A stretch of DNA of 64,000 bases from Chitinophagaceae bacterium (GCA_044226045.1 JBGAHR010000002.1:97059-161058), one strand, 5' to 3'; counted from the first letter of the stretch, positions 29,265 through 55,358 are shown. Made by a program: numbers and translations. Notes: a model not told the origin generated them from the letters alone.

Positions 29265-29512
29265 AAAGGATCCTTTCAACCAAACACAAAAATACTACCA
29301 AATCACTGTATACGAACGTCAGACAGGCCGAGGGAGTATAAAGCGGGTTAACAATTTACTAATACGGTAAACAGGCGGCAAAGTAGTGGTGAACCAGTCC
29401 AACAGAGGCTGTTCAAGGGGTTGCCAGGGTCAGATTAACAAATTGTAAACTCAATATGAAGATTTCATGCCCCTGTTTCATTTGTGTAGGTTTGCGTAAA
29501 TTTTACCATTTG

Positions 29513-30196
29513 ATGGAGTCTAAAGGCAAAAAAATCCTCATAGCAGACGATGAGCCGGACATTTTGGAGATCATCCAGTACAACCTGGTAAAAGAAGGGT
29601 ACGAAGTTATCACTGCGAAAGATGGCGATGAGGCCCTGGCCAAGGCCAAGATGCACAAGCCAGATCTGATTATACTGGATATCATGATGCCCAAAAAGAA
29701 CGGGGTCGAAGTTTGTGAGATTTTACGCCTCCAGCCCGCTTTTAAAGAAACACTCATTATCTTCCTTACGGCCCTGTCCGATGAAAGTTCGCATATCAGG
29801 GGGCTGGAAACCGGTGCGGATGACTATGTGAGCAAGCCCATTAGTCCCAAGGTGCTCATCAGCCGGGTAAATGCCCTTTTCCGCAGGGTTCATAAAGACC
29901 AACCTTCCGATACTGTCATCAAAATCGACAACCTGGAAATCGACCCTTCCAAGTTTGAAGTAAAAGTGGACGGTAAATCGATCATCCTCGCCAAAAAAGA
30001 ATTTGAACTTCTGCATCTGTTAGCCTCCCGTCCGGGCCGTGTATTTTTAAGAAATGAGATACTGAGCCAGATTTGGGGAAATGACGTGATCGTTGGCGAC
30101 AGAACCATAGATGTGCATATCCGTAAGGTCCGCCAGAAACTGGGTGTAGACTGCATCCGAACAGTGAAAGGCGTGGGTTACAAGTTTGATTTGTAG
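29513..30196 (+). CDS. OmpR/PhoB-family response regulator (PhoP/PhoB-like)
   Basis: ILIADDE, LIILDIMMP (phospho-Asp), IIFLTA, DDYVSKP; wHTH RTIDVHIRKVRQKLG...IRTVKGVGYKF; start MESK at 29513. Confidence 0.93.
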   Translation: MESKGKKILIADDEPDILEIIQYNLVKEGYEVITAKDGDEALAKAKMHKPDLIILDIMMPKKNGVEVCEILRLQPAFKETLIIFLTALSDESSHIRGLETGADDYVSKPISPKVLISRVNALFRRVHKDQPSDTVIKIDNLEIDPSKFEVKVDGKSIILAKKEFELLHLLASRPGRVFLRNEILSQIWGNDVIVGDRTIDVHIRKVRQKLGVDCIRTVKGVGYKFDL

Positions 30197-30206
30197 TTTT
30201 GTAAAG

Positions 30207-31259
30207 ATGTTCTCCACCAAAAACTTATCTCCAAGGGAACTGTCGGCTTTTACAGCCGCCCTCCTTTCTGTTCCAATTTCCCTTGGCATTTACTTTGTTA
30301 CCGGTAGCTGGAAAATTGGTGCGGGTTCATTGGTATTGATCTTCTTCGGCAGTTTCGGATTGATCCTTTTTACGCTTGAAAAATTCATTTACCGCAAGAT
30401 CAAACTGATCTATAAACTGATTCACCAGACCAAGGCCACCCGCCGGGAGGAAGTATATTTCAAATACATCCTGCCTCAAAAAAGTATCGATGAGGTCAGG
30501 GAAGATGTGGAAGCCTGGGGGGAGAGGCAAAAACAGGAAATCGAACTGCTCCAGCGAAACGAGAGCTACCGAAAGGAATTTCTGCAAAACCTCGCCCACG
30601 AATTCAAAACCCCCATCTTCGCAATCCAGGGTTATCTCGACACTCTGCTGAGCGGCGCGATGGAGGATGAGGCTGTGAGTAGAAAATTCCTCGAAAAAGC
30701 CTCCAAAAATACCAACCGGCTGGTAAACCTGGTAAATGACCTGGATGAAATATCCAAACTGGAATCAGGCGAACAACTGCTGTACAAGCAAAGCTTCATC
30801 ATCCAGGACCTCATACTCGAAGTCTTCGATGCCCTTTCGATAAAAACCCAGCAAAAAAACATCACCCCGGTCATTAAAAAAGGATGCGAAGCGCCGATCA
30901 CTGTTTTTGCGGATAAGGAAAAGATCAAGCAGGTATTGACCAACCTCATCGAAAATGCCAGCAAGTATGGCAAATTGAATGGCACCATTGTGGCCAGCGT
31001 CTATCGAACCGACGACTCCCATGTACTGGTAGAGATCAGCGACGATGGCATTGGTATCGAAGAAGAACATCTCCCCCGCATATTCGAAAGATTCTACCGG
31101 ACAGACGCCGCCAGGAGCCGCGATAAAGGAGGCACCGGCCTCGGATTAGCCATCTGCAAACACCTCATTGAAGCGCACGGCCAAACCATCCATGTCAGAA
31201 GTACTCCCGATGTGGGAACGACCATCGGGTTTACGCTGGGCACGAAGCGGGAAGCGTAA
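30207..31259 (+). CDS. Sensor histidine kinase (PhoR-like)
   Basis: Two N-terminal TMs; H-box LAHEFKTP, N-box NLIENASKY, G-boxes DDGIG, FERFYR, GTGLGL. Confidence 0.93.
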   Translation: MFSTKNLSPRELSAFTAALLSVPISLGIYFVTGSWKIGAGSLVLIFFGSFGLILFTLEKFIYRKIKLIYKLIHQTKATRREEVYFKYILPQKSIDEVREDVEAWGERQKQEIELLQRNESYRKEFLQNLAHEFKTPIFAIQGYLDTLLSGAMEDEAVSRKFLEKASKNTNRLVNLVNDLDEISKLESGEQLLYKQSFIIQDLILEVFDALSIKTQQKNITPVIKKGCEAPITVFADKEKIKQVLTNLIENASKYGKLNGTIVASVYRTDDSHVLVEISDDGIGIEEEHLPRIFERFYRTDAARSRDKGGTGLGLAICKHLIEAHGQTIHVRSTPDVGTTIGFTLGTKREA

Positions 31260-32675: not shown

Positions 32676-33108
32676 AAAGTGAAAATTGAAAAGTCAAAAG
32701 TCAAAAGTCAAAAGTCAAAAGTCAAAATTCAAAAGTGAACAGCTAACTAGTTCATGCAGTTCAGGAACGCAGAGGACGCCAAGTACCGCTAAGGGCGCAA
32801 AAAGAAATTCAAAAGCCAAAAATAAAACGTTGATCAATATGCGATTCCGTAAAAAAATAGAATTAAATTTTCAGGTTGCTTAGAAAATATTACTTTTTAC
32901 TTTTTACTTTTTACTTTTTACTTTTTACTTTTTACTTTTTACTTTTTACTTTTTACTTTTTACTTTTTACTTTTTACTTACTTTTTACTTTTTTTACTTT
33001 TTACTTTTACTTTACTTTTTACTTTTTACTTTTACTTTTTACTTTTTATTTTTACTTTTTTTTTTACTTTTTACTTTTTAATTTTGACTTTTGACTTTTG
33101 AATTTTCA
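32676..33108. repeat. MITE-like element with heptamer terminal inverted repeats and an internal TTTTTAC array
   Basis: Left gtgaaaattgaaaagtcaaaagtcaaaa; right ttttgacttttgacttttgaattttcac; internal (TTTTTAC)n at about 32890-33077. Confidence 0.88.
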
Positions 33109-33111: not shown

Positions 33112-34233
33112 TCAAACCTTCTCCATCAACTTTTCCGCCAGGCCGAAGCTGAGGGTCATTCCCGCGCCGCCGAGTCCGTTAAATAGATACACACCCGGAT
33201 CCGGGTTTAGAAACAGGTATGGCTCACCGTTGGTAAGCTTGGCATAAATTCCATTCCAGGATTCCAGCAGATTCCATTGCGGGAATTGTGCAAATATCTT
33301 CAGGTAGTCCACGATCAGGTTGTTGATATCACTCCGATCGAACGGATCAAGCGTCAGCCCATATTCATGCGAATCCCCAATGGTCAGTTCACCCGCTTCA
33401 TTCTGAGAAACCATCACATGAATACCCCAATCGAGATATTCCTTCATTTCCTGCCGGAATCGTTGTTTCAATGCGACAAGAGACGGCGCGGCCTCGAAAC
33501 TTTTGTAATGCGCCAGCGACAATCCGCCACACAATGCCGGACCAATGCGCCAGGAGCCTGGAGCCTGAAGACGCATCATTTGCAGCTTGCACTTGGTAAT
33601 TGAAAGAGAAGAAAACAGCTCGGGATAAAGGGTTTCAAAATCTGCACCCGAACACAATACCACCAGGTCTGCCTTGAATGATTCATTCCCGCACCATACC
33701 GTGGTGCCGTCTATTCGGGACACCGCTTTGTTGAAAAGAAATCGGGTCTTATATTTTTCCTGCAGGTAAGCCGGTATGGCCGCGATGGCCTTTTTGGGAT
33801 TCACAATCACTTCATCGGCGCTGTATAATCCTCCCATTAATTGTTCTCCAACAACCGCGGGAGATTTTTGAAGTACTTCTTCCCTGCTCAGTAATTGTAC
33901 AGGGCGTTCTTTGTGATAGGTTTCAAATAGTTCCTGTAACACTTGCCATTCATCTGCCTGATAGGCCAGGTGAAGACTGCCGGCTTCTTCATGCCAGAAA
34001 GCGCCTGCACGACTGATTTCCTGCCAGGCGGCCCGGCTTCTCAAGGCACTTTCATACAGAAACCCTGATGGTTGCCCGATGGGCCAAACCATTCCGAAGT
34101 TACGGATGGAAGCCCCTACGGCCTGCCCGTTTCTTTCGATGATGGTAACTTCATAACCCTGCTGGGAAAGAGATCTGGCAGATGCCAATCCTACGATGCC
34201 GGCGCCGATAACGATGGCTGATTTTTTTGCCAT
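33112..34233 (-). CDS. FAD-dependent oxidoreductase, TIGR03364/HpnW-type (phosphonate catabolism-associated)
   Basis: IVIGAGIVG; GASIRNFGMVWPIGQ; CKLQMMRL; GLGGAGMTLSFG; gene context. Confidence 0.85.
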   Translation of the reverse strand: MAKKSAIVIGAGIVGLASARSLSQQGYEVTIIERNGQAVGASIRNFGMVWPIGQPSGFLYESALRSRAAWQEISRAGAFWHEEAGSLHLAYQADEWQVLQELFETYHKERPVQLLSREEVLQKSPAVVGEQLMGGLYSADEVIVNPKKAIAAIPAYLQEKYKTRFLFNKAVSRIDGTTVWCGNESFKADLVVLCSGADFETLYPELFSSLSITKCKLQMMRLQAPGSWRIGPALCGGLSLAHYKSFEAAPSLVALKQRFRQEMKEYLDWGIHVMVSQNEAGELTIGDSHEYGLTLDPFDRSDINNLIVDYLKIFAQFPQWNLLESWNGIYAKLTNGEPYLFLNPDPGVYLFNGLGGAGMTLSFGLAEKLMEKV

Positions 34234-35501
34234 GAGCCTTGACTGATTTTATACTTCCGGTTAAAATAGAAAAATGATAGTATCACACCCAACACACCAA
34301 TGACCGAAAATCCGATCACGGCATTGGAATAGAACGAAACCCAGTTCAACTGGAGTTTCAATATTTCCTTACTCAGCACGACAAACATGCTTCCGAAATA
34401 TCCCCAGGCATCTGCCATATAAATCAGAAATCCTACGTTTCCTGCAATTCGGAAGCAGGCAATCATTCGCTCGAAAAAAATACAGTTAAAGGGAATATAA
34501 CCCATATACAATCCAAGACCCGTCAATTGCATCCAGGTAGCGCCACTGATCTTTCCGTCGAGAAAAAGAACAGATGAAAGACCCGCGATCAGAAACCCTG
34601 CTGCAATAACGATATGGATCAGTTGAAAAGCCCTGAAATTATTCCGGATTATCACCAGCAGGCTCATCAGGGCCAGCACTATGATGGAAGTGATTGTTTC
34701 GGTTCGGGTAAAAACGGAGGGCTTGCTGCCATACCCCAGGTCATTCCACATATTGGCCATGAAGTTGTCGCGAATGTCGCGCATAACGGTCAGGAACAGG
34801 TAGGTGATCGTGATGATGACAAGCCCCCAGCTAAAATTCCTCAACAACTTTCTTCTGTCTTCCTTGTTCATGGGTAACCGTTGCGTTCGCTCCCGTATGT
34901 CCTGCTCGTCGGGAACGGGTATTTTTTCCAGCAGATAGATAAATAGTATCAGCGGAACAACAAACACCAGTCCGGTCATGAAGCCCAACCATTTTTCGGG
35001 AATCTCCAGGCTGTCTCTTAACCATACCGCTACAGATCGGGTAAACCCACCTGCAAAAATGAAACTAACGGCCATGGCACTTCCGATAAAATCGGTTGCT
35101 CTTCGTCCTTCTACATAGCTGAATACAATGCCCCACATAAATCCCAACATGAAACCATTCAACAATAAACAGATCATTCCAAAAGGCGGCGGCACCAGGG
35201 CAAACAGCAACAGGGCCAGCCAGGAAGTGCCTACCAGGATCGCACTGGTTTTCCATCTTCCCAGTCGTTTCAGTTCGGAAATAAACTTGATGCCGTAAAA
35301 TTTGCTTAACATATAACCGATACCCTGGCTGATGATCAGCAGGGTTTGGTAAGACACCCCCCAATAATTCAGTCCGGGGAAGGTGGCAACCGTAAATGGC
35401 TTTCTGTAGGCGTAGACCGACGCGTAAGTCAGGAACGCTACAACAGCAGCATACAAAGCAGTCAGTACCTGTTGCCGGGTAAATGTGGAGGAAGAGGGCA
35501 T
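34191..35501 (-). CDS. DUF5690 family MFS-like inner-membrane transporter
   Basis: About 12 TMs; YASVYAYRKPF, SYVEGRRATD, GNVGFLIYMADAWGY. Confidence 0.8.
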   Translation of the reverse strand: MPSSSTFTRQQVLTALYAAVVAFLTYASVYAYRKPFTVATFPGLNYWGVSYQTLLIISQGIGYMLSKFYGIKFISELKRLGRWKTSAILVGTSWLALLLFALVPPPFGMICLLLNGFMLGFMWGIVFSYVEGRRATDFIGSAMAVSFIFAGGFTRSVAVWLRDSLEIPEKWLGFMTGLVFVVPLILFIYLLEKIPVPDEQDIRERTQRLPMNKEDRRKLLRNFSWGLVIITITYLFLTVMRDIRDNFMANMWNDLGYGSKPSVFTRTETITSIIVLALMSLLVIIRNNFRAFQLIHIVIAAGFLIAGLSSVLFLDGKISGATWMQLTGLGLYMGYIPFNCIFFERMIACFRIAGNVGFLIYMADAWGYFGSMFVVLSKEILKLQLNWVSFYSNAVIGFSVIGVLGVILSFFYFNRKYKISQGSWQKNQPSLSAPAS

Positions 35502-36182
35502 TTATGAAATTAAGGAAGACAATTGAGAAAGGCTGTCAATGATATGATCGGGATGATAGGCTTCGAGCTGCTCACGGGTGTAGGCGCCAGTGGTAACGCT
35601 GATAACAAGCCCACAGCCTGCATTCCTGCCTTCCTGTACATCCACTTCGGTATCTCCCAGTTTTACAATAGAGGCAGGGTCGCTGATCGATAAGGCCTTC
35701 ATGATCGTCTTGATCATTGATGGAGAAGGACGTCCTTCGTCCACTTCATCGCTGGCAATTACATAATCTATTTGCCGGCCTGTTTGCCAGTTCAGTCGGG
35801 TAAGGATGGTATCGGTAATTGCCCGGGTAAAACCGGTATTCAATGCAACCTTGATTCCTTCCTGCCGGAGCTGGCCAAACAATTCCTCTGCAAAAGGAAG
35901 CGGTCTGATCTCTGTATCGTTTCTGTAAAACTCAATCATTTTGTGAATGAAAGCGTCATGTATCCGGTTGATGGTTTCGTCGTTGATCTCTGCCGGTTTG
36001 TACTTTTCCAACAGGATGCGAATGGCATCTTTCTTACGCCATCCCATCACTTTTTTCACTTCCGCTCTTTCCACTGCAATGCCTGCATCCGCAAACGCGG
36101 CAATGAAGGCATCGGCCACATTACCCCTGTCGTTTACCGTTGTACCGGCCATATCAAAAACCACCAGTTTATATTTGCTCAT
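35502..36182 (-). CDS. HAD-family phosphonatase-like hydrolase (PhnX-like)
   Basis: True start MSKYKLVVFDMAGT at 36182; MGWRKKD cap motif, LNTGF, GRPSP, KLGDTEVD. Confidence 0.85.
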   Translation of the reverse strand: MSKYKLVVFDMAGTTVNDRGNVADAFIAAFADAGIAVERAEVKKVMGWRKKDAIRILLEKYKPAEINDETINRIHDAFIHKMIEFYRNDTEIRPLPFAEELFGQLRQEGIKVALNTGFTRAITDTILTRLNWQTGRQIDYVIASDEVDEGRPSPSMIKTIMKALSISDPASIVKLGDTEVDVQEGRNAGCGLVISVTTGAYTREQLEAYHPDHIIDSLSQLSSLIS

Positions 36183-36210
36183 AATAAATATTGTGTTTCG
36201 CTTCTGAAAA

Positions 36211-36783
36211 TTATTGTTGTTCGAGATGCCTGATGATGCGCAATCTGTAAGGTTCGAGATCGCCCACCGGCTGGTTCTCGATCTTGGCTTCCTCATCCCA
36301 CAGGCGCATCTGTATGATTTGATCAAAAAGAGGATCTGATTCAAAAGCCTTCGCTTCTTCGGTTTCCATTCTTCCCCCCTGGAATTCCAGCGTTTTCCTA
36401 CTGGCTTCCGACAATTGTTCGTAGTAGTCGGGCTTCTTCCATGTAAGATAACGCTTGGCATCTACATGTGACTCCACGAGGCGGATTAACTTTTCCGAAA
36501 ATCCGTGATCACGCAGATAGGCTGCGCCCACTGCTTCGTGATCAATGGTTCCAAATCCGTCCATCTGCGCATGCGTGTCGGCACTTACGCAGATGTGACC
36601 GATATCATGCAAGAAAGCAGCGAGTATTACTTCATCATCGTACCCCTGTTTCAGCGCCAGTTCTCCCGCCTGGTACATGTGTTCCAGTTGTGTTACTTTT
36701 TCTCCGGCATATTCCTGACCGCCATAATCACTGAACATGGTTAGGATGCGATCGGCTATCTCGGCGGCTTGTAAATGATTCAT
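36211..36783 (-). CDS. phnZ: HD-domain phosphonate oxygenase, PhnZ-like
   Basis: YAGEKVTQLEH, LHDIGH, HEAVG, HVDAKRYL and RLWDEEAK match the PhnZ diiron ligand pattern. Confidence 0.8.
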   Translation of the reverse strand: MNHLQAAEIADRILTMFSDYGGQEYAGEKVTQLEHMYQAGELALKQGYDDEVILAAFLHDIGHICVSADTHAQMDGFGTIDHEAVGAAYLRDHGFSEKLIRLVESHVDAKRYLTWKKPDYYEQLSEASRKTLEFQGGRMETEEAKAFESDPLFDQIIQMRLWDEEAKIENQPVGDLEPYRLRIIRHLEQQ

Positions 36784-36787
36784 GAAA

Positions 36788-37858
36788 TTATTTTAAGGCG
36801 GATGGAATAGAATTAGCTACCGGATGATTGGCGGTAAACCGAAAACCAAGCAACTCGGCAATCGTAGCGGCGATTTGTTTTTGATACAGCTGCCCGTTGG
36901 TTTTCACTTCACCGAGTGGCGCGCTGTCGGGACCCATCACAGCCAGCCAGATCTCATGAGCGTCTTCAATTTTGGAACCGTGGTGTTTCCAGTTTGACTT
37001 CACGAGGTCGCCTCTGCCATGATCACAGGTAATCAGCAAAGTGGTCTTATCCTTATACACAGGATTCGATTGAATATAATTCCACAGATCGCCGATCATC
37101 GCATCCTCAGCCGCTGCCGCACCAATGTACTGATCATACAGGCCACCATGCGCGTAATCATCGGTTTCATCAAAGGCAATATACAACACCCTCGGCTGAT
37201 AGCTCTTCAGGTATTCACGGGCTGCCATATAAGTGATGATATCCGGTCTTACACCAATGGGTCTCGGCGTCAGGAACTGCATATCATTCAGCACTTGCAA
37301 GGTGGGATTGGGAAAATCGATTTTTTCTACGTCGGCATTCACATATACCCCACTCCGCGGTTCATTGAGTATATATGGAAAGGCATCCCAGGTAGTGAAA
37401 GCAGCCACTTTCCCCTGGAAACCTTTTTGCTTGTTGAGAAACTCCAGCACGTTTTCGTTCTTGTTCAGGATCTTGTCATTTGAATTGACAGCCGTATCAG
37501 GATAACCAGTGAAGATTTCGTTGTATCCGGGATAAGAGAACCAATAAGGATTGGCGTTGTCTACCTTGTTTCCATAACGGCGATTGCCATATAGCTGTCC
37601 CTTTTCTGCAACAGTCTTCCAAAGAAAAGGAAACAGCCTGGCGCGGCTTTCCTGTTCGGTAGCGGCGGCATATTTGCTTTTTAACCCGTCGCGGTCGCGG
37701 GTAAACGTGGAATCAGCAGACAGGACAGGATCCAGTCCTTTAAAAATCTCCTGCCAGCGCATACCGTCAAGCGTAACGATTATTATGTTTTCAGTCTTTC
37801 TCTGAGAAGAGGCTGAAAGGGAAATGAGAAGTAACGAGTATAAAAGGATTCTTTTCAT
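36788..37858 (-). CDS. Periplasmic alkaline-phosphatase-superfamily (AlkP/phosphoglyceromutase-like) hydrolase
   Basis: Signal peptide; IIIVTLDGMRW, FSYPGY nucleophile region, DETDDYAH, TCDHGRG. Confidence 0.82.
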   Translation of the reverse strand: MKRILLYSLLLISLSASSQRKTENIIIVTLDGMRWQEIFKGLDPVLSADSTFTRDRDGLKSKYAAATEQESRARLFPFLWKTVAEKGQLYGNRRYGNKVDNANPYWFSYPGYNEIFTGYPDTAVNSNDKILNKNENVLEFLNKQKGFQGKVAAFTTWDAFPYILNEPRSGVYVNADVEKIDFPNPTLQVLNDMQFLTPRPIGVRPDIITYMAAREYLKSYQPRVLYIAFDETDDYAHGGLYDQYIGAAAAEDAMIGDLWNYIQSNPVYKDKTTLLITCDHGRGDLVKSNWKHHGSKIEDAHEIWLAVMGPDSAPLGEVKTNGQLYQKQIAATIAELLGFRFTANHPVANSIPSALK

Positions 37859-37870
37859 AAAACAAATTTT

Positions 37871-37901
37871 AAAAAAGGGCGGAACCTGGACAAGTTCCGC
37901 C
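37871..37901 (-). terminator. Intrinsic terminator-like hairpin between susD and the AlkP gene
   Basis: Minus strand GGCGGAAC TTGTCCAG GTTCCGCC CTTTTTT. Confidence 0.72.
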
Positions 37902-37957
37902 GTTCGATTTAAACTGCTCGATTGCTATTGATTTGCCCGAGATCGTTGATGAATATT

Positions 37958-39535
37958 CTATTTAACTAACCAAAGTTGTCCGTTGATATCGTCCTGTCCC
38001 CCAAACTGGGCATCCAGAGCGGCTTTCAGGTTTTCGCCATTTCTGTTTGCTTCGTAAGAAGGATAGGTCCAGCGCGAAGGAATCTTTCCGTTGTTACCGA
38101 TGCCTATACCTACACTGAAGGCAGGTACGCCGGTACGACGGAAGTTGTAATAGGCTTCCCAGCCGGAGTTCTGGAAGAAAGCCAGGTATTTTTGTTTAAG
38201 AATCTTGGTAAGACCGGCATCACCTGTCTCATATTTCACTCCTGCCTGGTTGTAATAGGTGTTGAAGTCAAAATTGAAGCTGGCAGTTGTCCAGTCGCCC
38301 AGTGATTTACCAATGGCAAGGTAGTAAGCGGTATTGGCGCCATCGTGTATGCCATAAAAGGCCTGTGATGTCTGGATACCCTTTTTATACCAGCTTTCGG
38401 CATCGCCGGTGATCCATCCACGATTGATGGCTTCTGCCATATTGAAGCAAAGTTCAGTATAGCCAACAATAATAAAATCTTCAGCCGTGAAAGTTCTGTA
38501 ATAGCGATAACGATTGATATGAGATATGCTGTAGCTCAGTGCCTGGCTCTCCATGATGTCGAGAGATACCCCTGTACCGGGTGCTACAAAGGCCCTGAAA
38601 TCCGTGGGTGACCAGCTGTTGTCGTTCACCAGTTTCCAGGCGGGCTCGCAGGTAACGAGTACGCGGGGATCTTTAATATCTGTGCAGCCTTTTACATAGG
38701 TTTCTGCCATATTATACCGCAATGCATCGAAACCAAAACTTACCGGGTTGGTAGAATAGTTATTGATGTTAGCGATATACCGATAGGAGAAATCGTCATC
38801 TGCACTGTTGAATATCGGGTTGGCGCTGGCGTTGCCGATTACTTCAGCGAAACGTTGTTTGATTTTCAAATCAGCATCTGCTTCCTTTTTGCTGAGTGCA
38901 ATCAATACACGCAGTTTAAAGGTGTTCGCCAGTTTCCTCCATTTCATGAAATCGCCCTCGTAAAAGAAATCGCCTTTGAGCGTATTGTCGTTGGCAACCC
39001 GAAGGGCTTCAAAATCCGCGTTGGCTTCATCAAGCCATTGAATGATCTGCAGGAAAACCTGTTTCTGCGAATCGTACTTGGGTTGAAGAGATTCCAGTCC
39101 TTTGGCCGCTTCACTCATTGGCACATCGCCCATCAGGGAAGTGAGGTTATAGAAATAGAAAGCTTTCAGGAATTTACCAATTGCGTGATACGGAGTCTTG
39201 TCTGAGCCGGATGCCTTCGCAGCTTCTTTTTCCATCTGAACAATATTTTTCAGAATGGAGAGGTACACATCGAATGGTCCGCCGTTCCAGTTGTATTGAT
39301 TATCGCCATAGTATTGATAATTGCGGCAATAAAACTGGTTATAACGGGCTACTGCACCCCAGGGTTCCACTCCTCCCAACCCTCCTGACAGACTGTTGAG
39401 CAATCTGTTCAGGATCAGGTTTGGCGGAACGGTAGTGGATATGTTGGGGTTTTTCTGAAGGTCTTCATACTTTTTACTGCAGGCACCCAACAACAGCACG
39501 ACTGCCAGCAGGAATATGTTTGTGATCTTTTTCAT
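37958..39535 (-). CDS. SusD/RagB family outer-membrane lipoprotein
   Basis: Lipobox LLLGAC; LTSLMGDVPMSEA, PKYDSQKQV, EAYYNFRRTG; follows SusC. Confidence 0.92.
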   Translation of the reverse strand: MKKITNIFLLAVVLLLGACSKKYEDLQKNPNISTTVPPNLILNRLLNSLSGGLGGVEPWGAVARYNQFYCRNYQYYGDNQYNWNGGPFDVYLSILKNIVQMEKEAAKASGSDKTPYHAIGKFLKAFYFYNLTSLMGDVPMSEAAKGLESLQPKYDSQKQVFLQIIQWLDEANADFEALRVANDNTLKGDFFYEGDFMKWRKLANTFKLRVLIALSKKEADADLKIKQRFAEVIGNASANPIFNSADDDFSYRYIANINNYSTNPVSFGFDALRYNMAETYVKGCTDIKDPRVLVTCEPAWKLVNDNSWSPTDFRAFVAPGTGVSLDIMESQALSYSISHINRYRYYRTFTAEDFIIVGYTELCFNMAEAINRGWITGDAESWYKKGIQTSQAFYGIHDGANTAYYLAIGKSLGDWTTASFNFDFNTYYNQAGVKYETGDAGLTKILKQKYLAFFQNSGWEAYYNFRRTGVPAFSVGIGIGNNGKIPSRWTYPSYEANRNGENLKAALDAQFGGQDDINGQLWLVK

Positions 39536-39555
39536 TTTCTGATCGCTTGTTAAGT

Positions 39556-42500
39556 TTAGAAAGTGAGATTGATGTTCACACCGAATCGACGGGTGGTTGG
39601 TGTTTGCAAATCGGAGCCGGCAGCCTGTGTGAACTGATCAGGATCCACGTCTTTGTATTTCTTGGGGAAGAAAAGCAACAGGTTCCTTCCTACAAATGAT
39701 ACTTCTGCTTTGCGAATGAAAGATTTGCCGAGAACGGAAGCCGGTAATGAATAGGTCAATGTCACTTCACGCAGTTTGGCAAATGTTTTATTGATGATAT
39801 TCAATTCCTGGATGCCTGCATACCGGCTTGCATAGTTCTGAACGGAAGTAGACTTTGTATTGGGAGCTACAGTCAGATCTTTGTAGTTGGTGATCTCACC
39901 GGTAATAGGATCAAGGATGATGTTGCCTGTAAGGGTGATGCCTGGTTGAACCAATGAACCTGCACCTACGTCATCGGGTCTGTGTTCACCCCAGAGGCCG
40001 GTAGCTGTTTCCAGGTGTCTTCCGCCCTGCAGTGTTTTCTGGCGAACATAATCATGAAATACACCACCTACTACTCCGTCAAACTGGAAGCTCAGACGAA
40101 AATCTTTATAGCTGAAGCTGTTGGTAATACCCCATGACCAGTCCGGATCGGCTTCTCCAAAAATTCTTCTGGCGCTGCCCTGTCCGGCATCTCTGAAACG
40201 CATCAGCAATCCATCGGATCCATGAACGAGCTGGCCATCGGGTGTACGGATGAATCCTTCACCATAGATCAGATCAACCGGAGAACCGTCCTTGCTCCAT
40301 GCATCGGGGTTCGGATGTTTTACCCAGCGACGATCGAATGTAGACCAGTTAGCTCCTACATTCCAGGTAAAGTTCTTGGTGCTGATGGCAGTACCTGTTA
40401 AAGAGATTTCCCAACCGCGGTTACGATAGCTGCCATAGTTGGCAATGATGCTGCTGTATCCGGATGCGGGAGAAATGATGTCTGTACGATTGTACAGCAA
40501 TTCTGACTTGGAATTGAACCAGGTTACGTTCAGGCCCAGTCGATTCTTGAAGAAACGGAGGTCGGCGCCGAGCTCAATGGTCTTTTTGTTGTCGGCTTTC
40601 AGGGTTGAATCCAGCAGACCGTCGGCATAGCTCGCTCCGAGTTCGTTGTTGTAAGTACCGCTGTTGCTGATGTTATAACCGATAGAAGTCAGATCATAAA
40701 TACCCATATTGATCGGGGAATAGTAGTTCTGACCATAACCCTGACCGGTACCGAATCCGATATTGGGCTGCGCGATGTTTGCATAGATCTGTGCGCTTCT
40801 GCCCTGTGCATAAGAGCCTCTCAATTTCAGGAAAGTGAGCTGTGATGGCAGATTCAAATAATCCGACAAAACAGTAGAGGCGCCAAAAGAAGGATAGAAA
40901 TAAGTGTTATTGCCTTTGGGCAAACTGCTGGCTTTATCCAAACGACCGGTGGCATTCAGTGTCAGGTATTTTCCCAAACCAAAATCAAAGGAATAGTAAC
41001 CACTGATGAACAGGTTCTCCAAAGCAACGGAGGCGGCTTTACCCGGACGCAAGGTATTGGCAAGCGTGTACAGTCCTGGTACACTCAGGTAATCGGTTGA
41101 AGCGAAACTTCCGTTATAGCGCGCGTTACGCACGTTTCCTCCCACAAATCCATCCACCGTAAGAAAATTCTGGAAGAATTTGCTGGCGTATTTAACCTGC
41201 ACTTCGTTATTTGCTTCGAAGAAAGTGCGGCTGTCTTCGCGATAGTCTCCCAGTCTTTCGTCGCGACCATAGGCACCGGCCGATACCGGCATCTTCTCCT
41301 GGCGGAAAATGTTATAAGTAGAAATACCCGGACGGTACATGAACTCAAAGTCTTTCGCAAACTTCCAGTTCAGGGACACATAACCATATACGTCGTTTTT
41401 ATAGTGCGGACGCAACCATTCATACACCATGAACCAGGGATTGTTGTAACGCTGGTATTCTGCATAAATCTGCTGTGTTCCGATTTTGCCCGGCTGCCAA
41501 TAATTGCGCATATCATCCATGCTCCAGTCTGCACCAGCCCAGATCACCACGTTATAGATCATACTGTTCGGACCATAGTTTACGTCCGGGAAATTGGGAG
41601 AGTACTGACGGCTGTAATTGATATCAGCGGTAACTTTCAGTTTGCTGCTGAAAGTGTAGCCGGCGCTCAGGTTGAAGTTGGTTGTATTGAGGGCCATATT
41701 GGGAACGATGGCCTTCTGATAAGTATGTCCTACCCCGAAACGCAAATCATACTTTTCCCCACTCGCTGCAACAGCAATGTGGTTGGTGCTGAGGATACCG
41801 GTATTCAGGAATTTTTTGAGGTTGTCTTTTCCACGAGCGATCCAGGGCGTGGGAATGATATTACCGGTAAACTTGGAACCATCACCGAAGGTGGTTACGT
41901 AAGTGTTACCCGGATCCACTTTACCGTCATACTGAGGGATCAACTGTCCATCGAAGCGGGGACCCCATACATCATAGTCGTTGTCGTTCACACCGCCACC
42001 AACACCATCTTTAAAGGCATACTTGCCTCTTGAACCCGGGCCGTACTGATCCTGGTAGATCGGGAAAGCCAGGAAGCCTTTATCAAACATGGTGCTTGAG
42101 TTGAACTCGATGGAGAATCCGCGTTTGTCTTTGGTGCCTTTCTTTGTATTGATAACGATCGCTCCATTACGGGCAAGGCTGCCATACAGGGCGGAAGCTG
42201 TTTGTCCTTTCAGGAAGGTGTAACTCTCGATGTCATCGGGGCTGATATTCCAGGTATCTGTAGTAATAGGAACACCATCCACTACGAACAGCACATTTCC
42301 TTCTCCACGGAAATTGATGGAAGGCTGACGCAACAGTTCGTTGTTGATGTTCACTACCAGGCCTGCCACTTTACCTTTCAAACTGTTGATGGCATTGGGT
42401 TCACGTGCTTTCACCAGCTCCGCAGTCTTCACTTCCTGGATAGAATAGGTGAGTCTTTTGGATTCCTTTTTAATACCCAGCGCTGTTACCAGCACTTCAC

Positions 42501-42825
42501 TCATCGAACGGGGATCCTGTTCAAGAGAAATTACATAGGTATTGTCATCACCGATCGTGAGTTCGGTCTTCTTGATACCTACCCCACTAAACACCAGCAC
42601 ATCGCCGGATTTAGCATTAATAACAAATGTCCCTTCGGCTGAAGTAGACACACCGGACTTGCTGTCCTTAATCATTACGGAAACACCGGGAATACCGGTT
42701 TGATCTTTGGAAGAAATGGCCTTACCAGAAATCAGTCTTGTAGCCTGTGCTTGTACAAGAAAAGGAATGGCCATCAGAAAAAACAAAGCCACCCATCTTC
42801 CAGGGGCGTGTCGAAACGCTGGCAT
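39556..42825 (-). CDS. SusC/RagA family TonB-linked outer-membrane protein
   Basis: VTALGIKKE, LFVVDGVP, PDDIESYTFLKG..ASALYGS.A.NGAIVINTKKG SusC signature; C-terminal Phe. Confidence 0.95.
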   Translation of the reverse strand: MPAFRHAPGRWVALFFLMAIPFLVQAQATRLISGKAISSKDQTGIPGVSVMIKDSKSGVSTSAEGTFVINAKSGDVLVFSGVGIKKTELTIGDDNTYVISLEQDPRSMSEVLVTALGIKKESKRLTYSIQEVKTAELVKAREPNAINSLKGKVAGLVVNINNELLRQPSINFRGEGNVLFVVDGVPITTDTWNISPDDIESYTFLKGQTASALYGSLARNGAIVINTKKGTKDKRGFSIEFNSSTMFDKGFLAFPIYQDQYGPGSRGKYAFKDGVGGGVNDNDYDVWGPRFDGQLIPQYDGKVDPGNTYVTTFGDGSKFTGNIIPTPWIARGKDNLKKFLNTGILSTNHIAVAASGEKYDLRFGVGHTYQKAIVPNMALNTTNFNLSAGYTFSSKLKVTADINYSRQYSPNFPDVNYGPNSMIYNVVIWAGADWSMDDMRNYWQPGKIGTQQIYAEYQRYNNPWFMVYEWLRPHYKNDVYGYVSLNWKFAKDFEFMYRPGISTYNIFRQEKMPVSAGAYGRDERLGDYREDSRTFFEANNEVQVKYASKFFQNFLTVDGFVGGNVRNARYNGSFASTDYLSVPGLYTLANTLRPGKAASVALENLFISGYYSFDFGLGKYLTLNATGRLDKASSLPKGNNTYFYPSFGASTVLSDYLNLPSQLTFLKLRGSYAQGRSAQIYANIAQPNIGFGTGQGYGQNYYSPINMGIYDLTSIGYNISNSGTYNNELGASYADGLLDSTLKADNKKTIELGADLRFFKNRLGLNVTWFNSKSELLYNRTDIISPASGYSSIIANYGSYRNRGWEISLTGTAISTKNFTWNVGANWSTFDRRWVKHPNPDAWSKDGSPVDLIYGEGFIRTPDGQLVHGSDGLLMRFRDAGQGSARRIFGEADPDWSWGITNSFSYKDFRLSFQFDGVVGGVFHDYVRQKTLQGGRHLETATGLWGEHRPDDVGAGSLVQPGITLTGNIILDPITGEITNYKDLTVAPNTKSTSVQNYASRYAGIQELNIINKTFAKLREVTLTYSLPASVLGKSFIRKAEVSFVGRNLLLFFPKKYKDVDPDQFTQAAGSDLQTPTTRRFGVNINLTF

Positions 42826-42870: not shown

Positions 42871-42937
42871 CGAAACTATCGAGTGCGTATTAAGCGAGGT
42901 TTATCGGAAAATGAATGAATACTTAACGAAATGTTAT
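42871..42937 (-). promoter_or_regulatory. susC promoter: -7 TAGTTTCG plus five 11-bp-periodic Pho-type hexamers
   Basis: Plus-strand hexamers at 42888 TATTAA, 42899 GTTTAT, 42910 AATGAA, 42921 ACTTAA, 42932 TGTTAT. Confidence 0.72.
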
Positions 42938-45204: not shown

Positions 45205-46665
45205 TTACTTACCGTTGAAAGAAGTCCAACCTTTCCACCAGGTAGCATCTTCACCAGCCGGAGCGATTGCACCACGGAAGGTTACTACTTTAAAGAAAGG
45301 ATCAGCCACTTTTGGATCAGTGAAAGCTGCGCCATTCAGGATTTTCTGGTTACCGCTTGAACCGGCAAACGGAGTAGGATCCGGAGCAGCGTAGTTGAAC
45401 GGTTGAATCAATTTAGCATCCGCAGAGTTCGTCAGGATGTCGTTGTTGTAGAAGCTGCTGGTAAACCAGGTCAGCATGCTGGCATCTGATTCGCCGGTTG
45501 GAGCGCTTCCACTTACAGAATATTTAATATTGATGGTGTTACCTGCCAGTGTAGTATTGCGGATGCGGAGCGTGCTGTCTTTGATGTTCAGATCGGTTGG
45601 TGTACCGGTGCTGGCATCGATCAGAATACCCTGTGGCCAACCCATGATGATGGAGTTGTAAATAGACAGTGCCGAGTTCCTGCGGATCTGTGCACCTGCA
45701 CGGAACAGTGAGTTACCGGCATTATTTAATGTAGCGCGGGGACCGATAGCAGTGATGTTGGAGAAAACTGCGCTGGTTTTGGGAGTAGCTGTTGTACCAC
45801 TGGCGTTGTTATCGCTCTCGAAAGCTTCCGAGGTAGAAATGTCAGCGATCAGTGAATCACGAATCACGAGACCAAACTGAACTTTTCCGGAGAAACCGTT
45901 ATCGGTATCGAAATCGTCGTCCTGTGTTTTGTAGGCAATGAGGTATTTGCAATTAACGGTACCACCAAACCATTCGTAAGCATCATCCTTTGCATAGATC
46001 ACCTGAACGTGATCGATAGTAGTGCCACTACCAACGGCAGCCAATGTAAGGCTGTTGATCTCTTTATCAGGCTGGAAGGCATAGCCGGCATATTCAATTC
46101 TTACGTATTTCAGGGTGCCTGAGTTATCGTCGGAAACCGGCGTGGGGGCCACTGCGTCGCCAGAACCGGCAAGACCATCGCCGTTGGCATTGTCGATACC
46201 ACCTTCAACCTGGTACAGTCCGTTCACACCATTGAAGCTGGTGTTGATAGGCGCTTTACCGCAAAGAACGATTCCACCCCAGTCGCCTGAGCTTGGATTC
46301 GGAGCAGCCGAAGTGAAGATGATGGGTTCGGTAGCTGTACCCACCGCATTGATTTTAGAACCACGCGTAATGATCAGAGCAGCCACATCACTTCCACTGA
46401 AGGAACCTTTAATCACTGTACCCGCTTCGATATTCATGGTATGATTGCCTACCATGTATACCAGTCCTTTCAGAATATAAGTATTCTCTTTGCGAAGCGT
46501 AGTATCGGCATTGATCCTGCCAGACAAAGTGATCGTCTGACCGGTGCTTCCACCACCAGGGCCTGGAACGATGATGATTTCTTTTTCACCATCCATTTCA
46601 ATTTTACGGCAGGCGTTGAAAGCGAGTCCTGCGAAAGCGACTAAAAACAAAATACTCTTTTTCAT
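45205..46665 (-). CDS. Uncharacterised outer-membrane lipoprotein, probable right-handed beta-helix
   Basis: Lipobox LAFNAC; repeated beta-coil patterns (SGTLKYVRIEYAG, DDAYEWFGG, DDDFDTDNG, AFESDN). Confidence 0.8.
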   Translation of the reverse strand: MKKSILFLVAFAGLAFNACRKIEMDGEKEIIIVPGPGGGSTGQTITLSGRINADTTLRKENTYILKGLVYMVGNHTMNIEAGTVIKGSFSGSDVAALIITRGSKINAVGTATEPIIFTSAAPNPSSGDWGGIVLCGKAPINTSFNGVNGLYQVEGGIDNANGDGLAGSGDAVAPTPVSDDNSGTLKYVRIEYAGYAFQPDKEINSLTLAAVGSGTTIDHVQVIYAKDDAYEWFGGTVNCKYLIAYKTQDDDFDTDNGFSGKVQFGLVIRDSLIADISTSEAFESDNNASGTTATPKTSAVFSNITAIGPRATLNNAGNSLFRAGAQIRRNSALSIYNSIIMGWPQGILIDASTGTPTDLNIKDSTLRIRNTTLAGNTINIKYSVSGSAPTGESDASMLTWFTSSFYNNDILTNSADAKLIQPFNYAAPDPTPFAGSSGNQKILNGAAFTDPKVADPFFKVVTFRGAIAPAGEDATWWKGWTSFNGK

Positions 46666-46696: not shown

Positions 46697-49481
46697 TTAT
46701 AATGAATAACTGAACGTGATGCCGAAAGTGGTTCCAAACTTCCTGGTGAAACGATAAGCGTCTTTCCCTTTCTGGAAGGTTGTTTTGCTGTCGGCATTCT
46801 GGTAGAAATATTGTGTCTGGTTCAGGAGATCCTGTACATTCAGCCTGATCTCAGCTTTGTTCTTCAGGAATTTCTTGGATGCCTGGAAGTCGAGCAATCC
46901 GCGGGGTGCCTCGTAAATATCAGGAGAACCCGCACCGGATGTTAAATCACCCACCAGATAAATTCTTTCGCCGATCTGGTTGAAGAGAAGCGTAAAGTTC
47001 AAACCGGCTTTCTCTACATCATACAACAAGCCGAGGTTGATCAGGTAGGGAGACTGCCCTTGCAGAGGACGATCGACCTGGAAGCCTTTGTCTTTAATAC
47101 GGCTGTAGATATAAGCGGCATTGGCCTGGAAAGTGAAGTTGCCCAATCCCTTGATGAAGTCCAGTTTCTTGCGAAACTCCACCTCAGCGCCATACGAAGT
47201 TGCTTTCTCGGGATTCTGGAAACTGAAAGTGCTTGCACCACCGCTGCCTTCATTGAAGATCTGCTCGATGGGCTTATCGAAATGTTTGTAAAATACACCT
47301 GCTGTGAGCACTTCACCCGCACGTGGATACAACTCGTAACGCAAATCGAAATTGGTTACCTTGGTACGCTCCAGGTTCGGGTTACCCTGTACAGAGGCAT
47401 TCAATTCGAAATCATAAATATTCAGGAACGACAGCTCTCTCAGTTCTGGTCTGATCACCGTTTGTGATCCCGAGAGACGAATATTGGTCTTGGCGTTGAC
47501 TTTATAAGTAGCATTCAGACCGGGCAGGAAATCGGTTACCTGTGTATGTGTGTGTCTTGGGTCGTATTTCTTTACACTTCCTACCAGCTGATCGTAGTTT
47601 TCGATACGAAGTCCCCATACCACGCGAAGTGCGTCTGTAAGCTGGTTATCCAACTGAAGGAAGCCGCCATTCAGAATGGTATTAGCGAGGTAACGGAACG
47701 TGTTTCCTTTGATGGCATCAAATCCAAACTTGTTACCGGTGCCATCACCAAAATTGGCAGGATCAAAAACCACATCGGGTGCCAGTTGACGAAGGGCGTC
47801 ATTGTCTATTGGAAGGTAGTTGGCAAAAAGTTTCGCGTCATACAGGCGGTCTTTGATCTGCAACATATAACCGCCTTTCAGTGCCTGCCCTCTGCCACCA
47901 AACATTTTGAAATTGTAAGTAAGATCACCACCTGCCGTATAGATATAGTCGCTCAGGTTCTGGTAGATACGGCTACCGCTTTGTTGTGAAAGGGTGTTGG
48001 AGATCACCAGTCTGTAAGGGTCATTGGAGCCCTGCGACTTTGAATACAGGATTCTTCTCTGATCGGGAATATAACCATCGAGGATGTTGAAAGCTCCGTA
48101 CCATTTCAGCTTAAGCGGCTTTAATATAGTGTGGTCGCCGGATGCCTGTACAGTAAAGAAGGTATTTTGTTTGAAAGTCAACTCGGGTCCTGAGAGGTCA
48201 TCATCGCGGTTGTAATCGATACCGCTCCTGCGGGTAACGTAGTTGGGAGAGTTGACATTCACAATTGATTTGATAGATATCTTGTTGAAGTTGTTCAGCT
48301 GAATGCTCAGGCTTCCCAATGCACCTACCTGCACATCCTGGATATACCGATCATCGTTGAAATTGTAGTTGGTACTGAAAACTGTTCCAGACAATGAATT
48401 GGAGCGGTTCAACAAACGGAGGTAACGATTGGTCTTATTATAAGTAACACCCAGCGTACCACCAATAGTCTTCCCAAAAAGTTTTGTATTGAAGCCCCCA
48501 TTCAATTGGAAAGAAGTATTCAGGGGAGCTGACGTTTTCTCCGGAGTCCAGGCATTCCTTAATTGCTTTCCGATGGCAGTCTTCTGTGCAGGCGTCAATA
48601 CGTCGAAGTCTGATTTAGTGGTATAGGAAGAAGGCAGACCGCGGGTGCCATCATCGATGCCCAGCCAGTCTGTTCTGCCGCCTTTGTCTTTGTAAAAATC
48701 CTTTCCAATGGTTTGTGAGTTGAAACCGGTGCCCACCTGTACATTCAAAAATCCTTTAGAGGGAATGTCTTTTGTATTCACCTGGATCAATCCGCCCGCC
48801 CATTCACCAGGATACTCTGGCACGAATGCTTTATTGATAACGATATTATCAATCATGGCTGCAGGGATCAGATCAAAAGAGAATGTTTTACGATCGGGCT
48901 CCGTACTGGAGAAAGGATACCATTCAGCATCGCCTGGTTGTAGCGATCGGCCAACCCTCTTACAATAATGAATCGTCCTTCCTGGATACTGGCACCTGGC
49001 GTACGCTTCAGGACTTCACCCGTGTTTTTATCGGGAGAACGGCGAATGGTTTCAGCAGAAATAACAGAAGCCACCGTATTGGTGTTCTTCTGGAAGGATA
49101 TCATCGAAGCGGCTGTTTCGCGGCGGGCGTTTGTTCTGTTGGCCGTAACCGTAACAGCACCCAGGTTTTTACTCGATACAGACAGCACGATATTCAGTTC
49201 GGTTACCTTTCCTTCTGCCACTTCAATTTCGTCAACCGTCTTTTTTTCGTAGCCAACCGCAGAATTCGAGGGTATATTTTTTTCCAGCCGCGAGCGTAAG
49301 CAGGAAGTTACCTTCACCGGAACTGGTAACACCTCCCGGAGCGCGGAAATTTTAATAGATACGCCGGCAACCGGTTCATTCTTTTTCATTGAGAACCTTA
49401 CCGGATATCTTGCCTGTTTTGAGAGAACGCAGTAAACGAACAAATCAACAGGGCCAGGAGTAGGAGGTAATTTTTGCTCAC
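46697..49481 (-). CDS. TonB-dependent receptor; 5' part frameshifted in this copy
   Basis: Continuous ORF 46697-48856 ending in GITFSYSL; indels near 48912, 49260, 49340 and 49385 relative to the second copy. Joining 53916-53004 to 48570-46697 gives one 2787-nt frame (928 aa). Confidence 0.8.
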
Positions 49482-49588
49482 GAGTAACTGTTTATTTGCG
49501 GCAAAAGTATCCCCGCACTGTTACCGTCCTGTTACTCCAATGTAATGGAATTGTGACCTCAATGTTACCGGAATGTTACCTGCCTGGT

Positions 49589-50888: not shown

Positions 50889-51012
50889 GTTAAATTAACA
50901 TTTCGCGCAAAAGGTAAAAGGAGCCTCGGACGCCCCGTATTAAATTGTTACCAAATGTTTCCTCTTGCCGGGTTGGTCTATTTCGACTAATCTTTGCGCA
51001 AAACTTAGTTCC

Positions 51013-51644
51013 ATGGGATTGAATTCAATCATGAAGTGCTTTACGCCAAAAGACAGGCTTTATTCTTTTTGAAGAAGTGGCAGACAATCATTTCTGCGAT
51101 GGGCAAGACCCCTCAAAAGTGGTGACAGAACCCGATTTTTGATAAAGAGCCTCCATCATCTCCAAAGTAGAAGACCTGGAACACCAGAATGATGAAATGA
51201 CTCACCGCATTTTCACCGAACTGGGTCGCAATTTCATCACATCCTCGATCGCGAAGACATTCACTACTGGCTTCAGCTCCTGGATGATATCTGCGATTAT
51301 ACCGCCACAGCACAAAAGATCAACTTCTATAAAATAAACCTACAATGATGGTATCCAGAAAATGGCCAATCTGGATTCGAGCAGGGTTCGTGACCATATC
51401 CGTACCGCGGTTGCGAACTGCGTAACATGCGCAATATGCGCAGCATTACCGATGCGCTGGTAAAGTGAATAGTATTGAAAACCAGACGGACGATATTTTT
51501 GACTGTAGCATCGACCGTTTGTTCGAAACAGAACCCGACGCGAAAGAAGTGATCAAAGAAATCTACCAGGTGATGGAAGTGGTGATTGATAAATGCGAAG
51601 ATGCCGCCAATGTAATTGAGTCCATCATCATCAAATACGCATAA
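51013..51644 (+). pseudogene. Frameshifted copy of the DUF47 gene
   Basis: Matches 55465-56112 with deletions. Confidence 0.85.
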
Positions 51645-51691
51645 TTAAGGAACAGGAAATAGATTTTCCTTTACTTCCATTTGTATTTATT

Positions 51692-53916: not shown

Positions 53917-53936
53917 GAGTAACTGTTTATTTGCGG

Positions 53937-54014
53937 CAAAAGTATCCCCGCACTGTTACCGTCCTGTTACTCCAATGTAATGGAATTGTGACCTCAATGT
54001 TACCGGAATGTTAC
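53937..54014 (-). promoter_or_regulatory. TBDR promoter: -7 TACTTTTG plus six 11-bp-periodic TGTTAC boxes
   Basis: 53954 TGTTAC, 53965 TGTTAC, 53976 TGTAAT, 53987 TGTGAC, 53998 TGTTAC, 54009 TGTTAC; duplicated at about 49502-49579. Confidence 0.82.
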
Positions 54015-54023
54015 CTGCCTGGT

Positions 54024-55340: not shown

Positions 55341-55358
55341 GTTAAATTAACATTGGCG

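Follow-up and report, generated by a model that had tools for sequence, protein, structure and literature searches.

Does a SusC/SusD pair that stands directly in front of genes for carbon-phosphorus (C-P) bond cleavage bring phosphonates into the cell? Phosphonates make up a large and poorly accessible share of the organic phosphorus in soils and waters, and the question is raised by a seven-gene locus in a 64,000-nucleotide stretch of DNA from a Chitinophagaceae bacterium (GCA_044226045.1, JBGAHR010000002.1:97059-161058; hereafter the window, from whose first letter all positions are counted). An initial annotation, made from the sequence alone, described this locus as a phosphonate utilization system laid out like a polysaccharide utilization locus (PUL). 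We consider it likely that the locus serves to scavenge natural aminophosphonates under inorganic phosphate (Pi) starvation, as a 'Pus'-type system, through a route that would lead from capture at the cell surface to cytoplasmic C-P cleavage. Its seven open reading frames (ORFs), all co-oriented on the minus strand, occupy positions 33112-42825. In gene order they are:

39556-42825, minus strand: SusC/RagA-type TonB-dependent transporter, 1089 amino acids (aa), with a signal peptide; TIGR04056 at 444.4 bits (cut-off 368.25), with CarbopepD_reg_2, Plug and barrel domains
37958-39535, minus strand: SusD-like surface lipoprotein of the SusD-like_2 subfamily, 525 aa; PF12771 at 235 bits, PF12741 at 139 bits, Cys19 following the signal peptide
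36788-37858, minus strand: exported AlkP-superfamily hydrolase of an uncharacterized family, 356 aa; PF01663 at 31 bits (cut-off 23), PF01676
36211-36783, minus strand: PhnZ-like HD-domain di-iron oxygenase, 190 aa, cytoplasmic; TIGR03276 at 202.7 bits (cut-off 214.6)
35502-36182, minus strand: PhnX-like HAD hydrolase of the TIGR03351 type, 226 aa; TIGR03351 at 210.1 bits (cut-off 218.9), TIGR01422 at 144.6 bits (cut-off 220)
34191-35501, minus strand: DUF5690 inner-membrane protein with a predicted major facilitator superfamily (MFS) fold, 436 aa; PF18943 at 526.4 bits (cut-off 25)
33112-34233, minus strand: TIGR03364 (PbfD-type) amine oxidase dependent on flavin adenine dinucleotide (FAD), 373 aa; TIGR03364 at 423.9 bits (cut-off 285.1)

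The span and shared orientation of these genes agree with the initial annotation, and profile searches upheld its identification of each of the seven, with TIGR03364 and PF18943 scoring above their cut-offs and TIGR03351 and TIGR03276 slightly below theirs. Intergenic distances from susC to the FAD oxidase gene are 20, 99, 4, 28, 0 and -43 nucleotides (nt), the last two reflecting a HAD gene that abuts the DUF5690 gene and a FAD gene that overlaps the DUF5690 stop codon. The longest HAD ORF (35502-36461) runs into the HD gene; since the HAD domain begins at MSKYKLVVFDMAGTT, we place this gene at 35502-36182, with its start at 36182 rather than 36461. A transporter of the SusC/RagA subfamily with a SusD lipoprotein 20 nt downstream constitutes a SusC/SusD pair, and the co-localization of this pair with phosphorus-releasing enzymes instead of carbohydrate-active enzymes (CAZymes), an arrangement kept in relatives, is one of the traits of a Pus locus.

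The HD-domain protein aligns to the PhnZ structure 4MLM (E 3e-41), and the equivalents of PhnZ H34, H58, D59, H80, H104 and D161, as well as those of Y24, E27, K108, S126, T129, Q133 and R158, are all identical. The first six are the iron ligands, and K108, S126, T129, Q133 and R158 bind the phosphonate, as reportedly assigned by van Staalduinen et al. in 2014. The best-scoring family for this protein is TIGR03276 (202.7 bits), ahead of TmpB (147.8) and PhnZ1 (129.7), and the kept residues argue for (R)-1-hydroxy-2-aminoethylphosphonate (HAEP) as its putative substrate rather than the substrates of TmpB or PhnZ1. The HAD protein aligns to the Bacillus cereus phosphonatase PhnX (1RQL, E 1.6e-21) and has the DxAGT motif (D10), the Schiff-base lysine K50 (the equivalent of K53), and the GRP and GDT..D motifs, together with the synteny with a TIGR03364 gene that is characteristic of the TIGR03351 type. 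That TIGR03364 gene, well above its family threshold, lies one gene away from the HAD gene. By annotation the TIGR03364 family includes PbfD1, and the PbfD enzymes form phosphonoacetaldehyde by oxidizing 2-aminoethylphosphonate (AEP) or N-methyl-AEP; for PbfD2, which comes from an organism that has phnX and lacks phnW, PhnX is the sole partner (PMC10590968).

The genome, 4.7 Mb in size and 99.99% complete, contains no PhnW (best match 33.8 bits against a threshold of 400.8) and lacks PhnJ as well as any further PhnX-like or PhnZ-like gene. The locus is thus its only recognizable C-P cleavage system. A 2-oxoglutarate dioxygenase of the PhnY* type is absent from the locus. We considered the lone PhyH-family gene of the genome (36 bits) as a PhnY* partner and rejected it, as it is not linked to the locus and has an AraC regulator and an aldo-keto reductase for neighbors.

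Two further proteins would connect the outer membrane to these enzymes. The AlkP protein has a cleavable-type signal peptide without a lipobox, and the core fold, bimetal site and Ser/Thr nucleophile of the AlkP superfamily; its residues D31, S108, D233, H237, D279, H280 and H293 are invariant across 28 orthologues. We predict it to be a periplasmic phospho(no)esterase. Its AlphaFold (AF2) model (mean predicted local distance difference test score, pLDDT, 90.6) matches YejM, LtaS, sulfatases and NPP at the superfamily level only, with template modeling (TM) scores of 0.5-0.6, and its more than 5500 homologues bear generic names only, such as 'alkaline phosphatase family protein' or 'phosphoglyceromutase'. 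Neither PDB sequence and fold searches nor the names of its homologues narrowed its substrate beyond the superfamily level. The AF2 model of DUF5690 (pLDDT 86.8) superposes in Foldseek on the MFS carriers PiPT, sialin, G6PT, FLVCR and GLUTs with TM scores of 0.57-0.67, as expected of an MFS fold; a PDB profile search gave no sequence relative. From its context we predict that this protein imports the released aminophosphonate. We found essentially no literature on the family, which is present in 35 of 401 sampled Bacteroidota genomes (28 of 180 genera). PF18943 also matches Caulobacter vibrioides among 14 control genomes, and the family is therefore not confined to Bacteroidota.

If SusCD belongs to phosphonate catabolism, it should accompany the catabolic genes in relatives, as the initial annotation had proposed to check. 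We collected DUF5690-centered loci from 106 Chitinophagaceae-type genomes, scored them by tblastn, and counted SusD co-occurrence in the 75 loci whose upstream sequence extends over 8 kb or more. Among loci with a catabolic core, meaning at least two of FAD, HAD and HD, 41/45 have a co-oriented SusD upstream, compared with 2/30 loci with DUF5690 alone (Fisher p = 4e-14, kinship not corrected for). The closest relative, an uncultured Chitinophagaceae metagenome-assembled genome, has the identical gene order at 82-96% amino-acid identity. Cultivable organisms with the full locus include Niastella vici DJ57, Niastella yeongjuensis DSM 17621, Paraflavitalea sp. CAU 1676, Paraflavitalea pollutisoli, Lacibacter luteus TTM-7, Terrimonas ginsenosidimutans and Pollutibacter soli. 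The association extends to other families and classes of Bacteroidota, where 5 of 20 loci combine SusCD, a FAD oxidase gene of the D-amino acid oxidase (DAO) type, DUF5690 and HAD; four of these five also have the AlkP gene and three the HD gene. The expected synteny is therefore present both within the family and beyond it. The ten phosphonate-linked SusD proteins that we sampled are all PF12771/PF12741 members and fall into two score groups. Identity to the window's SusD is at least 90% in one locus, 65-80% in four, 55-65% in two, 40-55% in 19 and below 35% in 15. Relatives' loci also carry additional genes, among them a TonB receptor without SusD (20 loci) and a 464-aa protein without a Pfam match (14 loci). 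Many relatives have such genes, or exported beta-propeller plus PF04185 proteins, inserted between SusD or AlkP and the HD gene (e.g., L008:3899-6424, L041:6077-8512 and L054:6222-7616).

The route that we propose would begin with SusC/SusD capturing an aminophosphonate-bearing small molecule at the cell surface for TonB-energized import. Likely cargoes are AEP or its 1-hydroxylated counterpart HAEP, either free or in a small ester, for instance the head group of a deacylated phosphonolipid. The exported AlkP enzyme, judging from its fold, its metal and nucleophile site and its signal peptide, would cleave the ester in the periplasm and free AEP or HAEP, and the DUF5690 permease, judging from gene context, would take the product over the inner membrane. 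In the cytoplasm, the PbfD-type FAD oxidase would convert AEP and N-methyl-AEP to phosphonoacetaldehyde, which the PhnX-like HAD enzyme would split into acetaldehyde and phosphate; for both steps the chemistry is published for relatives. The PhnZ-like oxygenase would turn HAEP into glycine and phosphate, and a PhnY*-type hydroxylase would be unnecessary if HAEP itself is imported. The complete route envisaged by the initial annotation is thus present on paper in all its parts. Its suggestion that the cargo derives from lipids or glycans finds a hint only in the loci of relatives, which often (21-23 loci) carry exported beta-propeller and PF04185 (phospholipase C (PLC)/AcpA-family) proteins; these PLC-family enzymes are the only computational hint of ester-bound, possibly lipid-derived, captured substrates.

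Two gene pairs of the window accompany the locus in relatives:

29456-31259, plus strand: PhoB-like response regulator and PhoR/PnpS-like histidine kinase; TIGR02154 at 239.6 bits and NF053854 at 223.6 bits, the best matches yet below cut-off, and for the kinase NF046044 and TIGR02966
43042-44920, plus strand, divergent from susC: PlcP/LpxH-like metallophosphoesterase and MJ1255-type glycosyltransferase; PF00149, PF13528, TIGR00661

The PhoB/PhoR-like pair is syntenic with the locus in relatives, and the PlcP-like and glycosyltransferase genes, a candidate phospholipid-to-glycolipid remodeling pair of the Pho response, adjoin the DUF5690 module there.

The 99-nt gap between susD and the AlkP gene holds a strong terminator-like 10-bp hairpin followed by TTTTTT (37878-37901 in a terminator scan), which turned out to be part of a longer conserved element:

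37866-37941, minus strand: conserved non-coding element of 76 nt, with the motif AGCAATCG.AGCAGTTT, a 10-bp GC-rich hairpin and a U-tract

A covariance model, R1, built from 14 loci finds this element once in its own genome, at 75 bits. Of 100 relatives' loci, 38 have it, each in a single copy and without exception on the strand of the genes. In every match compared with gene maps, it lies directly upstream of the first inner gene, be it AlkP, HD, a PLC-family gene or DUF5690. In at least 15 loci that lack an upstream susCD, it has the divergent PlcP-like gene on one side and DUF5690 or HAD on the other, and it is therefore not simply the terminator of susD. The hairpin helix is 98.6% paired, with two covarying pairs, A-U to G-C covariation and G-U wobbles, and the roughly 35 nt before it, which include the motif, are conserved and unstructured. 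No Rfam family reaches its gathering score in the window or in the gap, where only chance-level matches occur. When we looked upstream of the hairpin for an antiterminator or a leader peptide, RNAalifold gave the terminator helix only, and there was no conserved start codon. Beyond Chitinophagaceae, the model matches none of the 20 loci searched; loci of the second SusD clade yield only weak matches, of 28-30 bits. The element is probably a leader or attenuator of the inner module. It would probably attenuate transcription, either keeping susCD more abundant than the inner module or giving the inner module its own control. On this reading, the promoter of a 'full' locus would be followed first by susCD and then by the leader. 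Alternatively, the element may represent a small RNA derived from a 3' end, or an internal promoter.

Upstream of susC we find two candidate promoter features:

42889-42936, minus strand: five phased 11-bp units, TAAC, TAAG, TCAT, TAAA and TAAT in gene orientation, a candidate PhoB-type array upstream of susC
42871-42878, minus strand: TAGTTTCG, a candidate Bacteroidota -7 box 45 nt before the susC ATG, inside the invariant block ATAGTTTCGC

Against the Bacteroidota -7 consensus, TAnnTTTG, the box has one mismatch. The phased units and TAGTTTCG are among the few conserved columns of the orthologous PlcP-susC intergenic regions of five species, whose mean identity is 50%. By sequence, the arrangement fits a PhoB-type array that replaces the -33 element.

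Several observations weigh against the scavenging of aminophosphonates through this locus, or against parts of it, and some of them invite other explanations. At the promoter, the susC site scores a weak 13-15 of 24 against an array model of TGTTAC at 11-bp spacing, so that the 'Pho-type promoter' named in the initial annotation is borne out in part, by the conserved 11-bp phasing and TAGTTTCG. The same model scores 21 of 24 at two TonB-receptor promoters of the window (49519 and 53954). Scores of at least 15 occur 44 times in the window, and the array model alone therefore does not single out the susC promoter, for which cross-species conservation is more informative. We regard a Pho-type promoter before susC as plausible. 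Indirect signs of a response to Pi depletion are the phased conserved units, the PhoB/PhoR-like pair nearby, and the induction published for similar Flavobacterium clusters.

The enzymes supply further points of this kind. The HD protein is a near miss on the curated TIGR03276 cut-off (202.7 against 214.6), and the HAD protein on that of TIGR03351, its best-scoring family (210.1 against 218.9); the latter also falls well short of TIGR01422, the PhnX family (144.6 against 220 bits). Ala replaces PhnX His56 in this protein, in which the PhnX motifs are otherwise kept, and we therefore call it a PhnX-like enzyme and not a certified PhnX. The exported AlkP enzyme has no close characterized relative in PDB sequence, fold or homologue-name searches. 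A HAD protein under both phosphonatase cut-offs and without the His56 equivalent, alongside a generic AlkP fold, would suit a locus that targets no C-P compounds and instead processes phosphoethanolamine-type amines from ordinary phospholipids, by amine oxidation followed by the action of a HAD phosphatase. We consider this highly improbable given that the PhnZ-like enzyme retains all iron ligands and HAEP-binding residues, that TIGR03364 enzymes are proven AEP oxidases, and that DxAGT with the Schiff-base lysine is specific to the phosphonatase lineage, in line with the TIGRFAM description.

The permease poses a different problem. DUF5690 stands alone, without phosphonate genes, in 30 of the 75 relatives' loci, beside the PlcP-glycosyltransferase and PhoB/PhoR-like pairs, which speaks against its being a dedicated phosphonate permease. 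On a DUF5690 tree, 'alone' and 'full' contexts are mixed, with at least ten changes forced by supported branches, and neighboring genes have thus been repeatedly gained or lost around a retained permease; given this history, DUF5690 may not be phosphonate-specific. Some Niastella genomes have a stand-alone copy in addition to a full cluster. These contexts, and top fold matches that include phosphate and sugar-phosphate MFS carriers, could be explained if DUF5690 were a Pho-regulon permease for phosphate or organophosphates in general and aminophosphonates entered the cytoplasm by another carrier. We think this improbable. The locus holds no other candidate inner-membrane transporter, the window already has a PHO4-type phosphate carrier, and DUF5690 is directly flanked by the HAD and FAD genes through 0-nt and overlapping junctions, with DAO or HAD genes flanking it in about half of the 20 loci from other families as well.

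A further difficulty concerns SusCD itself. The initial annotation had one promoter driving all seven genes, which a conserved terminator-like hairpin, separating susCD from the five downstream genes, calls into question. The SusCD pairs found at this position moreover represent several divergent lineages (28-96% identity), which could mean different cargoes. Both findings would follow if two units had been juxtaposed in a Pho island: susCD, perhaps with AlkP, would serve ordinary phosphoesters, and the inner module would serve free aminophosphonates that arrive through porins, for which AEP is small enough, so that SusCD would have no specificity for phosphonates. The swapping of SusCD lineages, the presence of the element before inner modules that lack susCD, and AlkP-DUF5690 pairs without catabolic genes (e.g., L035, L097 and L103) all favor such an arrangement. 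It is nonetheless unlikely, in our view, because SusD tracks the catabolic core and not DUF5690 or the Pho island (41/45 versus 2/30), because the association of SusCD with catabolic genes recurs in other families, and because one Pfam subfamily is common to all sampled SusD proteins. The capture of aminophosphonates by SusCD is thus the reading that we prefer. It is conceivable, as a tentative extension that we would rate as rather unlikely, that the 76-nt element is a new cis-acting RNA, an attenuator or leader, through which capture at the outer membrane is uncoupled from uptake across the inner membrane and from C-P cleavage, perhaps with phosphate or aminophosphonates as the signal, and that SusCD is a dedicated importer of aminophosphonate head groups whose SusD binds a non-sugar ligand by means other than the Trp stacking of PusD1 and PusD2.

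The surroundings of the locus, from about 29 to 57 kb of the window, form a phosphorus-acquisition island that also holds TonB receptors with a lipoprotein, a phosphate-selective porin O/P family protein, and PhoU-like and PHO4 genes. Identical TGTTAC-like hexamer arrays with exact 11-bp spacing lie on the plus strand at 49519-49579 and 53954-54014; these are the window's only sites that score at least 18 of 24 (shuffle mean 0.1) and its strongest candidate PhoB-type sites. A segmental duplication (48570-51671 and 53003-56139, offset by about 4.43-4.47 kb) is mostly 91-100% identical, with one short stretch at 83% and small indels, and spans the 5' part of a TonB receptor, the six-unit TGTTAC array, the porin O/P family gene and the PhoU-like gene. 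Its upstream copy has no long ORFs (only 50059-50562), suggesting a decayed duplicate or an assembly artifact. The TonB-dependent receptor at 46697-49443 (minus strand) is split into a 191-aa Plug ORF (48868-49443) and a 719-aa barrel ORF (46697-48856), as might result from a frameshift, pseudogene formation or a sequencing error, and is followed by a 486-aa lipoprotein without a Pfam or NCBIfam match (45205-46665). At the other end of the locus, positions 32676-33108, between the convergent FAD gene and a gene with a type IX secretion system tail, contain about 25 AAAAAGT-type heptamer repeats. These are flanked by GTCAAAA/TTTTGAC arms that form a long inverted repeat, which could be a bidirectional terminator or an insert resembling a miniature inverted-repeat transposable element.

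How does this locus compare with known systems? It shares with classical Sus-type PULs a SusCD pair, one or more exported hydrolases, an inner-membrane MFS carrier and cytoplasmic catabolic enzymes. It differs in having no CAZymes and no hybrid two-component or extracytoplasmic function sigma/anti-sigma regulator, and in targeting a source of phosphorus rather than carbon. Oxidative C-P cleavage by the PhnY*/PhnZ pathway has reportedly been described by McSorley in 2012 and van Staalduinen in 2014; the HD enzyme keeps the iron ligands and HAEP-binding residues of that pathway, but the locus lacks PhnY*. The PbfD-PhnX pathway offers a closer parallel, with a TIGR03364 FAD oxidase near a phosphonatase-type HAD gene in a genome without PhnW, as for Mariniblastus fucicola PbfD2 (Zangelmi et al. 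2023, PMC10590968). The HAD protein here is instead of the TIGR03351 'PhnX-like' type with His56 changed to Ala, and the published PbfD-PhnX clusters are mainly proteobacterial or from the Planctomycetes-Verrucomicrobia-Chlamydiae group and are not linked to SusCD (PMC10590968). The predicted role of DUF5690 beside catabolic genes recalls the AEP importers AepXVW, AepP and AepSTU (Murphy et al. 2021, PMC8316502). Among these, AepP likewise belongs to the MFS and has been related to GlpT (PMC8316502), whereas DUF5690 is a separate Pfam family, unrelated to the known AEP importers.

The nearest counterparts are the Pus systems of Flavobacterium, in which SusCD-like 'PusCD' complexes are induced by Pi depletion (Lidbury et al., bioRxiv 10.1101/719427; PMC8115612). 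PusCD1 and PusCD2 take up organophosphorus compounds and have been characterized as importers of phosphoinositol lipids (Connolly et al. 2026, bioRxiv 10.64898/2026.09.03.749221). In Flavobacterium johnsoniae these resemble the present locus in combining a SusCD pair without glycoside hydrolases, exported phosphoesterases and a Pi-starvation neighborhood (PMC8115612; 10.64898/2026.09.03.749221), and in a logic whereby energy is spent on capture at the outer membrane and hydrolysis follows in the periplasm. They differ in their SusD proteins, since PusD1 and PusD2 belong to pf07980/pf14322 and bind inositol phosphate or glycerophosphoinositol (GroPI) by Trp stacking, whereas the SusD here is of the SusD-like_2 type (PF12771). 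Their partners are phosphatidylinositol-specific PLC or GlpQ-type enzymes, whereas the partners here would be C-P cleaving. According to Connolly et al., pusCD-like pairs by aminophosphonate genes need an alternative binding mechanism, which is still to be explored (bioRxiv 10.64898/2026.09.03.749221), and the initial annotation was right that no SusCD has been characterized for phosphonates.

The novelty that it implied is another matter. Flavobacterium pusCD4, pusCD5 and pusCD6 are co-localized with phosphonatases (Lidbury et al., bioRxiv 10.1101/719427; PMC8115612), a figure legend in the same work names phnX, dao and gpmI-like genes (bioRxiv 10.1101/719427), and PusCD pairs that stand beside such genes and are induced by Pi depletion had thus already been reported (bioRxiv 10.1101/719427; PMC8115612). 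In gene content these loci, with SusCD, an enzyme annotated as AlkP or 'phosphoglyceromutase', a PhnX-like gene and a DAO-type oxidase, are apparently of the same type as the one described here, which comes from Chitinophagaceae rather than from rhizosphere Flavobacterium. The locus is therefore a new case of a type that has been noted in print and never tested. The Flavobacterium pusCD papers describe neither a PhnZ-like gene, nor DUF5690 as an MFS protein, nor a leader element. As far as we found, neither the 76-nt element nor the modular gain and loss of genes around DUF5690 had been described before. If the proposed route is correct, the range of TonB-powered SusCD uptake would include C-P compounds in addition to sugars and inositol phosphates, and DUF5690 would be a new family of aminophosphonate permeases. 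To the idea published for Flavobacterium the locus adds little; what it supplies is testable detail, namely cultivable carriers, a modular architecture, PLC-family partners and a leader element.

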